A stretch of DNA of 64,000 bases from an uncultured Methanoregulaceae archaeon (GCA_963705255.1 OY970061.1:1728001-1792000), one strand, 5' to 3'; shown: positions 36,245 through 43,050, counted from the stretch's first letter. Made by a program: numbers and translations. The notes: generated by a model from the sequence alone, not told the origin.

Positions 36245-38101
36245 TTATCGCACAGTTCCGAACCGGCCGATCACGCACTGGATCTCTGCTGCCACCCTCT
36301 TCAGTTCATCAATCCGGTCCGCAACCTTCTCTTCATGCCGTTTCCGCTCTGCAAGTGCCGAGTCGATCGCGCCATGGGTCGCCCCGATGGTCAGGCCAAG
36401 ATTAGCATCGAGATCGGCGCTGAACTTCCTGAATGCCGCATCAATGTTCTGCAGGGTCTCCCAGCGGAGGTTCTCGAGGTTGCGAATCACCAGCGTATCG
36501 ATCTGTTTTTTTAACCGGTTCCGTGCCCGGCTCTCGCGCAGCGATCCGGGCAGGAGGCGCCCGATGACCCCGGCCGGGATTGGTGAGAACGAACTGTCCC
36601 AGCAATGCTCGACCCAGTAGGGTTTTTTTACCGGCTCATAGGCGTATTCACCGTTCGGTGGATGGTACGGGATGTCAAAGAGCTCCGCTGCTGCCTTCCG
36701 GATAGATTCTGTGAGTTCGTCCGCCCTCTGTTCGTGATCTTTCAGCCTGGCAGCAACCTCTTTGTCCATCATCGAGGTGATCCTGCCAAGTTCGCGCTCG
36801 AACCATACCGGAATCTCGTCTGCCACGGCCTGCTGCGCCGCAGGCTCCGGGTCCTGCGGGGATGCTGCGATGGCCGATTCGGCAATCTTCGTGAGACGCT
36901 CACGGAGCGGGGCGCGAAGATTCTGGATATACGCTTCCAGCTGGGCGTGTACCCTTTTCTGGTCGCCGGTGAGGATATCCTGTGCGTGGATCCGCTGCTG
37001 CTGTGCCTTCGCGATCTTTTTGTCGAACAGGGCCAGTCTGTTCTCCAGCTGGGCGAGCGGCAGTTCGAGCGCCCGAATCTCAAGCTCGATCTGGAGCTGG
37101 ACATCATGGAAGAGATCGAGCGCTTTTCTCCCGATGGCGTCCCGCAACACGCGGTTCTTCTCACGGGCGAGAAAGGCAATGAGGTGATCGAAGATTTCAG
37201 CGAGCCCGCTCACCTCCCACAGGTCCTCATTGCCCGACTCTTTTGCCCGCAATCCCTCCCGTGCAGATATCGCAAAGATCCGGGTGCCGGGATCAATACC
37301 TACATCGCGTGTCAGGACCGTGCGATAGAACCCCAGTGCCACCTCCCGCTCCGCATCGGTCAGGTAGTCTACCTTATTCAGTACCAAGAATACCTGTGCG
37401 GCCCTGCTCCGGATCTCTTTGAGGAAGGTAACTTCGACTTCCATGATCGGCGGGTCGGCCGAGATGACGAAGAGAGCAGCATCGCACTGCGGCAGGAAGT
37501 TCATCGTCGCCTCGGTGTTGTGCCGGTAGGTCGAACCGATACCGGGCGTGTCGATGAGGACGACATCGCGGAGGATCGCAGCAGGGTGGGTGATCTCCAC
37601 CTGGAGAACTCCCTTTAAGTTCTTCGGATTGGAATCCTCGGTGACGAATCCCATGAGCTGTTTTTGCAGCCACCGGTTCCCGGAGGGAGGAGATGCGGGA
37701 AGACCCGTGTCTTCGATGCACTTCGTCGGTTCACCGTTGAGGACGGTATCCGGGCGGCTGTCATGGTACCGGACCCGGAGCAACCGCTGCTCCCCGTACC
37801 GGATGAATGTCGGGAGTGCCGTGAGCGGGACGACCGAACTCGGCAGGATGTCCTCGCCAAGCAGTGCGTTGATGAGCGTGCTCTTGCCCCGCTTGACCTG
37901 CCCGAGCACCGCGAGGTGGAACCGGCCCTGCGCGAGACGTTTTTCGAGTTCGTCCAGGCGCTGTGCATGGATGGCATAGCGGGGATCCATGGCCTCGAAG
38001 CGCCGCCGTTCGGTTTTCAGGATCTCCGCAAGGTTTTCCAGGACAGGGATCGTCCGGGTGTTGTGTGGGGGTAACGGGGTCGGGGTGCCGGTATCATCCA
38101 T
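36245..38101 (-). CDS. Dynamin-like GTPase (bacterial DLP type), A
   Basis: G1 GQVKRGKS, G2 PLTA, G3 DTPG, G4 NKVD, FVTEDSNP.N.K; long helical stalk; GGAGG RBS. Confidence 0.9.
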   Translation of the reverse strand: MDDTGTPTPLPPHNTRTIPVLENLAEILKTERRRFEAMDPRYAIHAQRLDELEKRLAQGRFHLAVLGQVKRGKSTLINALLGEDILPSSVVPLTALPTFIRYGEQRLLRVRYHDSRPDTVLNGEPTKCIEDTGLPASPPSGNRWLQKQLMGFVTEDSNPKNLKGVLQVEITHPAAILRDVVLIDTPGIGSTYRHNTEATMNFLPQCDAALFVISADPPIMEVEVTFLKEIRSRAAQVFLVLNKVDYLTDAEREVALGFYRTVLTRDVGIDPGTRIFAISAREGLRAKESGNEDLWEVSGLAEIFDHLIAFLAREKNRVLRDAIGRKALDLFHDVQLQIELEIRALELPLAQLENRLALFDKKIAKAQQQRIHAQDILTGDQKRVHAQLEAYIQNLRAPLRERLTKIAESAIAASPQDPEPAAQQAVADEIPVWFERELGRITSMMDKEVAARLKDHEQRADELTESIRKAAAELFDIPYHPPNGEYAYEPVKKPYWVEHCWDSSFSPIPAGVIGRLLPGSLRESRARNRLKKQIDTLVIRNLENLRWETLQNIDAAFRKFSADLDANLGLTIGATHGAIDSALAERKRHEEKVADRIDELKRVAAEIQCVIGRFGTVR

Positions 38102-38165
38102 AGGAGAATTCCTCCCTGTATCATCCGATCCTGGTGTGCCGCATGGCAGCACCGGCGATCGGGCG

Positions 38166-38216
38166 GGTAGGAGTTATCAGCACAAAAGGCGGTTAGCGGT
38201 GAACTCCATCACCGGA
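38166..38216 (-). ncRNA. Fluoride riboswitch (crcB motif) 1
   Basis: Sense CCGGTGATGGAGTTCACCGCTAACCGCCTTTTGTGCTGATAACTCCTAC: P1 CGGTG/CACCG, pseudoknot GGAGTT/AACTCC, AACCGC and GCTGATRAC consensus. Confidence 0.93.
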
Positions 38217-38321
38217 TACAGAAATTCTGCATGTGCTGATAATTAAGGGTTTGTCTCTTCCCGTACCATGAGGAAAAAAGAAAACTATTAGTGACAGGAA
38301 CCAGCATTTCTGATCTGTCAG

Positions 38322-38369
38322 TGGCGATGAAGTCCGCCATAACCGCCCGCCGGGGCTGATGACTTCTGT
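38322..38369 (+). ncRNA. Fluoride riboswitch (crcB motif) 2
   Basis: TGGCGATGAAGTCCGCCATAACCGCCCGCCGGGGCTGATGACTTCTG: P1 TGGCG/CGCCA, pseudoknot GAAGTC/GACTTC, P2 GCCC/GGGC. Confidence 0.92.
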
Positions 38370-38461
38370 TTTACCGGTGATGAGGTCTGCTGTACCAGTA
38401 CGGCCAGCGGGTCTCTCACAGAAACTGGCCTGAACAGGGAGGGCAATTACATGATGTTTGA

Positions 38462-38599
38462 TGGATCTGCGCCGGCAAGGTCAGGAGCGGCGCTTCCTGC
38501 CGGGGCGAGCGGATCGGGAAGTACAACCAGTTCCTGCGGATCGAAGAGGAACCCGGCAGCAGGGCGGCCTGTGCCGGCAGGAAAGCGTTCGTGCGGTGA
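38462..38599 (+). pseudogene. eno: Enolase C-terminal remnant (~45 codons)
   Basis: Reads [42 protein letters not shown], matching the enolase end AGQIKTG..SR.ERxAKYNQLLRIEEELG. Confidence 0.85.
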
Positions 38600-41400: not shown

Positions 41401-41792
41401 CGCGGTGCACCTTCCGGTACTACGCCGGCTGTCTCATCACATGCTGTTCGCACAACCGGGGATGGATGCTCCCTAAGTCTGCCGATCAGCTGTTGGCTGG
41501 CAGGAGATTTGATCCGTGACAGTGCATACACAATCTCACGCAAAGTGTACACGTCCTGGCCGGCGCGTATCATTGCTTCAAACGCCGGGACTGCCCGTTT
41601 GTATCGCCCCTGCCCGAGGATTTGTATCGCCATCATCCGGTGCTCACGGAGCGGGTGGTGCAGGGTGAGGAGGAGCCGCTCTTCATAGGGATGATCTTTC
41701 CAGTGTTCAATGGATCTTCCACACCGCTTGCAGATCTGTTCGTCCTCCGGGCTTTGTTTCCCGCAGAACGGGCAGAAGAAGGTCGTGCCCAT
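41397..41792 (-). CDS. Zinc-ribbon + HEAT/PBS-lyase repeat protein
   Basis: CPFC...CKRC; RMMAIQILG and HPSPVVR HEAT motifs; GAGGTGA RBS. Confidence 0.8.
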   Translation of the reverse strand: MGTTFFCPFCGKQSPEDEQICKRCGRSIEHWKDHPYEERLLLTLHHPLREHRMMAIQILGQGRYKRAVPAFEAMIRAGQDVYTLREIVYALSRIKSPASQQLIGRLREHPSPVVRTACDETAGVVPEGAPR

Positions 41793-41799
41793 CGTCACC

Positions 41800-42684
41800 T
41801 CAGTCGCAGCACTGCAGGGGATTGCCTGCATTCCTGCTGTCCGGGTTTTCCCGTATTCGTTCAATCGCTGTGAGTGCGTCCAGCGCGAGATAGGTATTTT
41901 CGAGCGTTGCCGATCCGCCGAATACCGACCGGACATATCCGCCGTTCTCACGGCAGCATTTCCTGATGAATTCTTCGCACTGCACCAGGATGGGCGAATG
42001 GTAGCCGTGCACTGAGCATGCGAGTACGCCGGCATGAATGTGTTCAAGATACGCGGGTTTTGTACCGGGCACCGCAAGGAAGCCATAGACGAGGTCTTCG
42101 CACTGTTTCAGAAAGTTTGTTGAACCTGTTGAGGAGATCGGATAACCGAGGGCTCTAAGGATGGCAAGCGCATGACCAGTCTCGATGATCGTGGATCGGG
42201 GATACCCGAAACCGGTGTCCGGGTACCGATAGCGGAGCACGGCGGTGACGATCTCATCTTTTTTCCCGGCGGAGATTACAGTTCCGGGAAGTGTGCAGAG
42301 ATCGGTGAGGAGATACAGGTGCCCGAAAGAGGAGGAGGATTCGACCGGCCGGATAGTGTCACCGGGTGGCAGCAGGGATGACAGAATCCAGTTTGAGGGA
42401 TCGATATGCGGTCGCTCACCAAGAATGTCCAGACTCCGGATCACTGCGTGCCCGACATTCACGTTCGAAAATTTTCCATCGGGATACTGGAACGCGTGAA
42501 GAAACGAGCAGGTAGTTTCATCATCGTCCGGTAATGCACCCAGCATTTTAAGCGATGCGAGTGCATGGAATGTGTCTCCGGCATTCGGCTCGTCGAGCCG
42601 GTAAAAACAGTAGCCACCGGAACTGCACCGCCGTTCCCGGATATACCGGATGGTTGTCTCCTGTTGAGGGATCATCGGCATCAT
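41800..42684 (-). CDS. Prenyltransferase/squalene-oxidase repeat protein (alpha/alpha barrel, COG1689-like)
   Basis: Repeats SGGY..PNAGDTFHAL, TGFG..STIIETGHAL, NGGY..SATLENTYLAL. Confidence 0.8.
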   Translation of the reverse strand: MMPMIPQQETTIRYIRERRCSSGGYCFYRLDEPNAGDTFHALASLKMLGALPDDDETTCSFLHAFQYPDGKFSNVNVGHAVIRSLDILGERPHIDPSNWILSSLLPPGDTIRPVESSSSFGHLYLLTDLCTLPGTVISAGKKDEIVTAVLRYRYPDTGFGYPRSTIIETGHALAILRALGYPISSTGSTNFLKQCEDLVYGFLAVPGTKPAYLEHIHAGVLACSVHGYHSPILVQCEEFIRKCCRENGGYVRSVFGGSATLENTYLALDALTAIERIRENPDSRNAGNPLQCCD

Positions 42685-42696
42685 CTACCATACACT

Positions 42697-42747
42697 GGTA
42701 GAAGTCATCAGCCGGAAAGGGCGGTTTGTGGCGGACTTCATCGCCGG
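42697..42747 (-). ncRNA. Fluoride riboswitch (crcB motif) 3
   Basis: Sense CCGGCGATGAAGTCCGCCACAAACCGCCCTTTCCGGCTGATGACTTCTACC, ending ~12 nt before ATG 42684. Confidence 0.93.
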
Positions 42748-43050
42748 TACGATAGTGTGGGGTGCGATGATAATTGAAGGTTACGACAAAACGGGTTGGA
42801 GAATGAGAATGACGGGAGAATCCCGGGGCGTAGCGGCCCGAACGTACTTCGTGAGTCCAATCAACAGCGACGAACAGAGTGCGGAGCATGGGTGAAGAGC
42901 GGGCCGGGGAAGCTGCTGGCGCCTTCTGCATCTTCCCCTCAATCATCTCATGGACCGTCTTCTCGATCGAGAAAGAGGGTTACCCACATATCTGCCTCAG
43001 ATAAAAAAACAAAATCAGTGGGAAAGAAGGATTTCAAAAGATCCGGCGGG

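Follow-up and report, generated by a model that had tools for sequence, protein, structure and literature searches.

The 64,000-nucleotide stretch of DNA analyzed here, called the window throughout (GCA_963705255.1 OY970061.1:1728001-1792000), comes from an uncultured Methanoregulaceae archaeon and lies in a single-contig genome of 2,600,650 bases (G000; completeness 89.5% by marker count; handles beginning with G denote genomes and those beginning with L denote loci). Its closest homologues bear Methanoregula names, in agreement with the methanogen host assumed in the original prediction, an earlier reading of the same DNA. The subject of this work is an island of three transcription units, each headed by its own fluoride riboswitch. 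The first encodes a dynamin-like protein (DLP), termed DLP_A, and the second carries the remnant, or scar, of an enolase gene followed by the gene for another such protein, DLP_B. The third is an operon encoding a prenyltransferase-like protein (PT-like), a zinc-ribbon and HEAT protein (Zn-HEAT) and a 217-residue protein that is possibly of the winged helix-turn-helix (wHTH) type. The comparison of riboswitch matches with gene order thus bears out the earlier view that there is one aptamer per transcription unit and that together these cover the island (Table 1). The linkage between fluoride riboswitches and dynamins recurs in archaea and bacteria, and it suggests that the fluoride stress response has a branch not described before.

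Table 1. Features of the fluoride-riboswitch island, with positions counted from the first nucleotide of the window.
Feature	Coordinates	Strand	Evidence
DLP_A, 618-aa BDLP/IniA-type dynamin-like GTPase	36245-38101	-	Pfam Dynamin_N, E 9.5e-26
Riboswitch 1, DLP_A leader	38161-38222	-	RF01734, 52.9 bits; pseudoknot GGAGUU/AACUCC
Divergent spacer between riboswitches 1 and 2	38223-38313		AT-rich TATA-like elements
Riboswitch 2, enolase-operon subtype	38314-38375	+	RF01734, 53.3 bits; pseudoknot GAAGUC/GACUUC
Enolase scar, last 67 codons, in-frame stop	38399-38598	+	PF00113 and tblastn
DLP_B, 679-aa dynamin-like GTPase with N-terminal X domain	38612-40651	+	Dynamin_N, E 1.9e-23, residues 200-340
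X domain of DLP_B, about 150 aa	38612 to about 39060	+	Helical bundle model, pLDDT 86.6
217-aa protein, possible winged helix, third gene of the operon	40747-41400	-	HTH_29, E 0.066
Zn-ribbon and HEAT protein, 131 aa	41397-41792	-	HEAT_2, E 4.5e-09; zinc-ribbon matches
PT-like, 294 aa, prenyltransferase/terpene-cyclase-like alpha-alpha toroid	41800-42684	-	PF00432, E 2.7e-10
Riboswitch 3, 8 nt before the PT-like start codon	42692-42754	-	RF01734, 55.4 bits

All three aptamers were recovered by covariance-model searches of the window and the whole genome with the Rfam family RF01734 (Fluoride; gathering score 34 bits). Each match covers the whole model (positions 1-64 of 64), and the matched intervals contain the coordinates claimed earlier for three crcB-motif aptamers. 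Genome-wide they are the only matches above the cut-off, and since all three fall within 4.6 kb of a 2.60-Mb genome, their grouping is far from chance; a fourth match, of 22.6 bits and inside open reading frames (ORFs), was treated as chance. The covariation of the pseudoknot noticed between the island copies holds across an alignment of 31 riboswitches taken from the window and from relatives' loci L036-L049. Columns 17-59 are AU in 23 sequences and GC in eight, columns 21-55 are CG in 22 and UA in eight, 99.5% of the cells in the pseudoknot helix are paired, and the observed covariation score was reached by none of 500 shuffles. Taking P1, P2 and the pseudoknot together, 96.5% of cells are paired and five pairs are altered on both sides, as against 32-52% paired in slid controls. 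The three island aptamers score on par with those of the relatives.

Across an order-level sample of 41 genomes (G000 and 40 Methanomicrobiales relatives), RF01734 scores above its cut-off in 14, often with two to five matches clustered together. Strong dynamin genes, defined by a Dynamin_N match of at least 82 bits, number 14 and occur in 12 of the 41 genomes, and 12 of these 14 genes have a same-strand riboswitch of Rfam grade upstream. As to the remaining two, the gene in G035 has a sub-threshold match (23.6-26.5 bits), and for that in G015 no riboswitch was found in the approximately 1.5-2 kb available before the contig end. Riboswitches lead DLP_A in G009, G023, G026, G030, G034, G036 and G039, DLP_B in G020 and G030, and PT-like operons in G009, G018, G030, G034, G036 and G039. 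Other riboswitch-led units in the order comprise enolase with or without a free-standing gene for X (the N-terminal domain of DLP_B), pairs of MutS-domain-V genes, crcB pairs, glutamine synthetase, and a thermosome subunit followed by histidinol dehydrogenase; a CbiA/ParA-type P-loop gene also follows PT in L039. The thermosome (Cpn60/TCP1) and histidinol dehydrogenase unit stands behind a riboswitch of 41-42 bits in two loci of the same genus (L048 9087-12251, plus strand; L049 6327-9507, minus strand), and glutamine synthetase stands behind another riboswitch in L046; these units look like unusual members of the fluoride regulon. One riboswitch-led enolase (L036 9008-11594, plus strand, in G034) seems to be interrupted, with an 87-residue Enolase_N fragment first, then about 940 nt with an opposite-strand ORF and then a 460-residue enolase ORF, and the interruption may be an insertion.

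Relatives of DLP_A were also collected from one genome per species. At least 598 stretches were matched, 592 of which encode relatives, and the best 80 of these 592 were kept (41-80% identity; 24 archaeal and 56 bacterial loci). The bacterial loci belong to Thermodesulfobacteriota, Myxococcota-labelled 'deltaproteobacteria', Bacillota, Planctomycetota, Acidobacteriota, Spirochaetota, Atribacterota and others. A custom covariance model built from the 31 riboswitches gave 119 matches in the 80 loci: a same-strand riboswitch lies at most 700 nt upstream of DLP_A in 69 of them, and in eight more it lies farther off, at 718-3911 nt, with enolase or MutS-like genes in between, which brings the total to 77 of 80. 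In 18 of 18 sampled bacterial loci where the custom model had found a riboswitch, RF01734 found it as well. A quick maximum-likelihood tree separates the 56 bacterial from all archaeal DLP_A sequences by a branch with a support of 99, so that the riboswitch linkage extends to both groups; the root of the tree is unsafe because DLP_B forms a very long outgroup. The neighbors in the 80 loci were enolase (35), PT-like (13), DLP_B or X (11) and MutS-like genes (10). Among 59 loci of DLP_B relatives from a metagenome scan, a riboswitch lies upstream on the same strand in 40, at a distance of no more than 400 nt in 28 of these. The survey of downstream genes suggested in the original prediction therefore finds the linkage recurring at all three scales, in the order, in the wider DLP_A family and among DLP_B relatives. 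MutS-domain-V pairs and DLP_A were further seen to form one riboswitch-led operon in L100, L102 and L105 (Atribacterota and relatives) and in L091, L094 and L126; such operons have either gene order and occur in several bacteria and one archaeon.

Riboswitch subtype tracks the downstream gene across genera, which suggests that each riboswitch was inherited together with its gene. DLP_A leaders combine the GGAGUU/AACUCC pseudoknot with a UUUUGUGC P2 loop and, in the alignment of 31 riboswitches, all have GGTGATGGAGTTCACC...GCTGATAACTCC in common; this subtype also precedes DLP_A orthologues in seven other genomes. Enolase leaders end in CUUCUGUUUUACC, and the tail of riboswitch 2, ...CTTCTGTTTTACC, is common to the enolase-leading riboswitches of relatives. 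Upstream of the DLP_A-type aptamer, an AT-rich element with the consensus AAACAAAGAATTAATTA is kept at a distance of about 30 nt in 12 aligned leaders and is probably an archaeal promoter. Single-sequence folds of the three leaders brought out a candidate expression-platform helix that would join the 5' flank of aptamer 1 to the pre-Shine-Dalgarno region; it was rejected, its pairing not being kept in 12 orthologous leaders. The 3' tail of aptamer 3 is spanned by a 7-bp hairpin, UCUACCA/UGGUAGA (window 42665-42700, minus strand), the 3' arm of which reaches one base into the PT-like start codon and leaves no room for a Shine-Dalgarno sequence; this hairpin may be part of the riboswitch-3 expression platform.

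The second unit holds a trace of how DLP_B came under its riboswitch. The earlier description of riboswitch 2 as lying 5' of the DLP_B unit stands, but the aptamer is not directly 5' of DLP_B, as the enolase remnant intervenes. The remnant matches PF00113 over window positions 38399-38590 (model positions 229-293, E 5.3e-11, one TGA), and by tblastn it aligns with residues 378-444 of the riboswitch-led enolase of L041 at 57% identity (E 3e-21). In the close relatives L052, L055 and L057 the order is riboswitch, intact enolase and DLP_B; L051 likewise has enolase between riboswitch and DLP_B, but its DLP_B matches in two pieces. This order in relatives, taken with the scar, shows that riboswitch 2 was an enolase riboswitch and that a deletion brought DLP_B adjacent to it. 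The only other enolase of the genome (G000:C1:1677360-1678161, minus strand; L130/L131) shows up as two separate PF00113 matches that differ in frame, with an internal TGA. It is either a broken housekeeping gene or the product of assembly indel errors, and if the break is real, the genome would be without an intact enolase.

DLP_A and DLP_B are the sole Dynamin_N genes of the genome, and they share 32% identity, in the G domain only. Translation of DLP_A most likely begins at 38101 with an ATG that follows GGGAGGA, in a GGAGG-ATG arrangement conserved in orthologous leaders; the GTG at 38152, proposed previously, is improbable. The G1 (G67-S74), G3 (D184-G187) and G4 (N242-D245) motifs of DLP_A are invariant across 41 sequences, and the corresponding G-domain motifs of DLP_B are GRVSSGKS, DTPG and SKAD. 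In the AF2 model of DLP_A (pLDDT 80.2) the G domain is followed by long helices at residues 315-615. Foldseek ranks IniA (6J72) first among structural matches (E 1.5e-22, TM 0.52/0.56) and BDLP next, with alignments that span approximately 610-680 columns. The sequence profile gives BDLP (2j68, E 5.3e-37), 5owv, which belongs to the Campylobacter DLP pair (E 1.6e-24), and also IniA and mitofusins. A loop at the stalk tip (residues 484-508) carries near-invariant Trp and Pro residues. A complex prediction for DLP_A with Zn-HEAT, run without controls, scored 0.00 and speaks neither for nor against binding.

At an E-value limit of 0.001 the X domain of DLP_B has no fold match in the PDB; it also has no Pfam family and, in the Atlas, unnamed clusters only. 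As a free-standing gene X follows enolase in L036, L037, L041, L042 and L044 (L036 11591-12085, L041 6319-6783, L042 8595-9116 and L044 8961-9422), and in G025 it stands behind a riboswitch in a genome without any dynamin gene.

The genes behind riboswitch 3 are tightly packed, with a 7-nt gap followed by a 4-nt overlap. This operon had been described as prenyltransferase-fold, HEAT and HTH; the first two labels are supported by Pfam, and the third is weak, with sub-threshold matches only. PT-like exceeds the PF00432 cut-off in two stretches (40.6 bits against 26.5). It belongs to riboswitch-led operons in all six relatives' loci and in 11 of the 13 DLP_A loci that contain it, the other two being cut by the end of the locus. 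For Zn-HEAT, an earlier start at 42086 was not borne out, and the gene begins at 41792. Four Cys residues are conserved in its archaeal and bacterial homologues; it occurs in nine of the 80 DLP_A loci, and in three of the bacterial ones (L072, L080 and L081) it comes immediately after DLP_A. Against wHTH families the 217-residue protein reached 13.8 bits with HTH_29, below the cut-off of 28.1, no NCBIfam match, and at most 0.87 in the Atlas. Its homologues hold the same position in L036, L038, L042 and L046, and wHTH homologues are present in only three of the 80 DLP_A loci. In G034 the PT/Zn-HEAT/wHTH operon ends with a crcB pair, which ties this operon to fluoride.

No exporter was found in the window, as previously stated, and none is recognizable genome-wide in searches for CrcB and CLC: CrcB (PF02537) has no match in the genome, and the sole CLC is some 1.48 Mb away from the island. 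This CLC scores 93-105 bits against ClcA-type Cl-/H+ exchangers versus 43.9 bits against CLC-F (6d0j), and it has GREGP and GxFxP motifs, which we take to be marks of Cl- types. Its C-terminal CBS region (L005 1153-2808, minus strand) seems to be frameshifted, consistent with assembly indel errors. Since only the DLP-centered units are riboswitch-led and neither Fluc nor CLC-F is recognized, the island is the entire recognizable riboswitch-controlled fluoride response of this genome and contains no exporter, while an exporter of another kind, or one without a riboswitch, may be present. CrcB occurs in eight of the 41 genomes; among the 12 that bear a DLP, four have it (G015, G020, G034 and G036) and eight do not. 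Genomes G026, G030, G035 and G039, all at least 98% complete, have riboswitch-DLP units without CrcB (the riboswitch match of G035 being sub-threshold).

All five island ORFs are intact and share 58-80% identity with their orthologues, and an NCBIfam scan of the five proteins returned no specific family for any of them. To the right the island is flanked by genes for a NOG1-type GTPase, an HrcA/CBS regulator and a HAD hydrolase; the ORFs of the left flank have no Pfam match.

With the known RF01734 regulons the island shares the aptamer class (P1, P2 and pseudoknot) and its position in the 5' leader, and its relatives link enolase, mutS-like genes and crcB; it differs in that no exporter is controlled and the targets are dynamin-like GTPases and the PT-like/Zn-HEAT operon. 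The passage on crcB-motif genes in Weinberg 2010 names mutS, K+/Cl- transport and formate hydrogen lyase (PMC2864571), and a passage of a 2022 review names phosphate-related genes (PMC9971707). Our full-text literature search returned nothing that links dynamin to the fluoride riboswitch or crcB, with the genes listed by Weinberg 2010 and Baker 2012, among which there may be GTPases, lying outside that search. A PT-like/Zn-HEAT operon under a fluoride riboswitch was likewise not found in the searched literature. Dynamin homologues in Methanomicrobia are mentioned in a 2013 review citing Bramkamp 2012, in a passage that gives no regulation or function (PMC3791482). These belong, as far as that passage goes, to the same lineage and superfamily as the island DLPs; what distinguishes the present case is that fluoride riboswitches precede 12 of the 14 such genes counted in the 41 genomes.

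Among characterized dynamins, IniA/IniC of Mycobacterium are the best structural match of DLP_A and are likewise stress-induced (isoniazid in their case, with the induction of DLP_A being our inference) and soluble, with a stalk-tip loop. Identity between IniA and DLP_A is however only 18-19%, IniA belongs to a transcriptional response to cell-wall drugs rather than to a fluoride riboswitch, and DLP_A is archaeal. BDLP of Nostoc punctiforme and Campylobacter DLP1/DLP2 are the best profile matches and share the G domain with a helical neck and trunk. In contrast to them, no hydrophobic paddle is predicted here, the island genes are divergent with 32% G-domain identity, and most relatives have one DLP type instead of a pair.

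The reading that we favor is that the island is a complete riboswitch-controlled fluoride regulon in which the DLPs serve as membrane GTPases under fluoride stress, a statement to which, taken as a whole, we give a probability of roughly 0.45. Its parts are of different strength. The aptamers, their gene order, their conserved linkage to dynamins and the fold class are confirmed observations; the regulatory part is strongly supported, and it is very probable on the comparative analysis that fluoride controls the island genes. On this reading the DLP_A and DLP_B families are given over to the fluoride response, in Methanomicrobiales as in many anaerobic bacteria, and the genes co-regulated with DLPs include classic fluoride targets, with enolase in 35 and MutS-domain-V pairs in 10 of the 80 loci. 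Characterized fluoride riboswitches are ON switches, and by this analogy induction by fluoride is assumed. Rising cytoplasmic fluoride would thus act on the three aptamers and switch on three transcripts: that of DLP_A via riboswitch 1, that of DLP_B via riboswitch 2 and through the remnant of the deleted enolase gene, and that of the PT-fold, Zn-ribbon/HEAT and possible winged-helix proteins via riboswitch 3. The DLPs would be soluble mechanoenzymes of the BDLP/IniA type that bind the cytoplasmic membrane peripherally and, powered by GTP, reseal or reshape it during fluoride stress; the PT-like and Zn-HEAT proteins would be their accessory factors. That the DLPs act on the membrane, in repair or remodelling, is a tentative proposal, somewhat less likely than not, drawn from the fold likeness to IniA and BDLP and from the aromatic stalk-tip loop of the DLP_A model.

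Several findings weigh against this reading. On the membrane side, no transmembrane segment is predicted in any island protein (maximum 19-residue hydropathy, KD19, 1.32), the supposed membrane loop of DLP_A falls in a low-confidence part of the model (pLDDT below 50) and is without a hydrophobic segment, and we know of no direct damage to membranes by fluoride. On the regulatory side, the leaders of riboswitches 1-3 show no obvious terminator, in leader sequences or single-sequence folds, and riboswitch 3 is only 8 nt from the start codon, so that ON behavior is an assumption. Judged by the scar and by the gene order of relatives, riboswitch 2 came from an enolase operon and did not arise for DLP_B. 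The linkage also has exceptions. Three of the 80 DLP_A loci have no upstream riboswitch: L099 is truncated where its contig starts, in L078 the enolase ahead of DLP_A runs into the contig end, and in L109 enolase precedes DLP_A with no riboswitch match in the 2 kb before the enolase; RF01734 likewise found no riboswitch in L078 or L109. Among the 59 DLP_B loci, 19 have none upstream, seven of these having less than 150 nt of upstream DNA, while four are distant, G-domain-only matches (25-29% identity) that amount to a small negative control. Finally, the notion of the two DLPs as an obligate pair is weakened, given that among the 41 genomes both types occur together in only two of the 12 DLP-bearing ones (G000 and G030), and a fixed two-DLP machine is accordingly unlikely.

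The main rival is compensation, in which the DLPs are fluoride-sensitive, Mg-dependent enzymes overproduced in the manner of enolase and do nothing particular for membrane repair. Phosphoryl-transfer enzymes that depend on Mg are inhibited by metal-fluoride complexes, AlF4- and MgF3- trap GTPases, and the fellow genes of the regulon (enolase, glutamine synthetase, thermosome, MutS-domain-V ATPases and the CbiA/ParA-type gene) all use Mg together with a nucleotide or phosphate. Nevertheless, no constitutive DLP exists, as both Dynamin_N genes here and 77 of 80 family loci are riboswitch-led; without fluoride, DLP function would therefore be absent rather than limiting, and we consider compensation unlikely. 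One step further down is the proposal that the DLPs and the MutS-like ATPases bind nucleoside diphosphate with metal fluoride as a switch or as a sink, possibly with signalling through the winged-helix protein. Strict conservation of the G-domain catalytic motifs, the co-transcription of a possible DNA-binding protein in the riboswitch-3 operon, and the dimerization of dynamin G domains with GDP-AlF4- would all fit a sensor. Stoichiometric binding, however, would be unable to buffer millimolar fluoride, and the wHTH call is both sub-threshold (Atlas below 0.9) and confined to the few DLP_A loci counted above, so that this proposal appears decidedly improbable.

It can also be asked whether the island is a decaying relic, left over without useful function from a larger regulon whose enolase and exporter have been lost. 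The reduction of the enolase gene to 67 codons and the lack of CrcB would agree with such decay, as would the relatives that retain enolase and, in some cases, crcB within the same operons. Decay is nonetheless hard to reconcile with five intact and conserved ORFs, with aptamer scores equal to those of relatives, and with the four near-complete genomes that also combine riboswitch-DLP units with a lack of CrcB, which makes a relic very unlikely. An anti-phage dynamin system of the LeoA/LeoBC type ('Dynamins' defence) with incidental riboswitch proximity was rejected on gene context as hardly credible, since the PADLOC scores (LeoA 71.1 and LeoBC 60.4 bits for DLP_A, and a weaker 34.2 and 18.6 bits for DLP_B, with no PADLOC cut-off and with DLP genes that are divergent and not co-oriented) are no more than general dynamin homology gives, the neighbors are enolase, MutS-like genes and CrcB and not defence genes, and a riboswitch linked to the gene in 77 of 80 loci cannot be there by coincidence.

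Beyond the favored reading of a DLP-centered fluoride regulon, a stronger version can be speculated upon, which we place on the unlikely side while ranking it above compensation. In this version, dedicated DLPs would provide Methanomicrobiales and many anaerobic bacteria with an exporter-independent fluoride defence that acts on the membrane itself, the whole regulon being Fluc-free both in this genome and in four or more nearly complete genomes of relatives. The regulon would consist of the DLPs, the PT-fold and Zn-HEAT proteins and the helical X domain, and its effect could lie in membrane resealing, in vesicle shedding or in a lower permeability of the isoprenoid membrane to hydrogen fluoride. 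If so, the archaeal dynamin homologues of Methanomicrobiales would be fluoride-stress proteins.

Fluoride resistance has so far been explained by the Fluc and CLC-F exporters together with a few overproduced target enzymes. What the window adds is a methanogen genome whose whole riboswitch regulon is DLP-centered and without an exporter, an enolase scar that shows the route by which DLP_B reached its switch, and the X-domain fusion. As a simple salt serves as the signal, NaF offers a direct test of the hypothesis. If the favored reading is true, the fluoride response would gain a mechanistically different arm, a physiological signal would be at hand for prokaryotic dynamins, most of which have no known natural trigger, and the dynamin homologues of archaea could be assigned a function open to testing.

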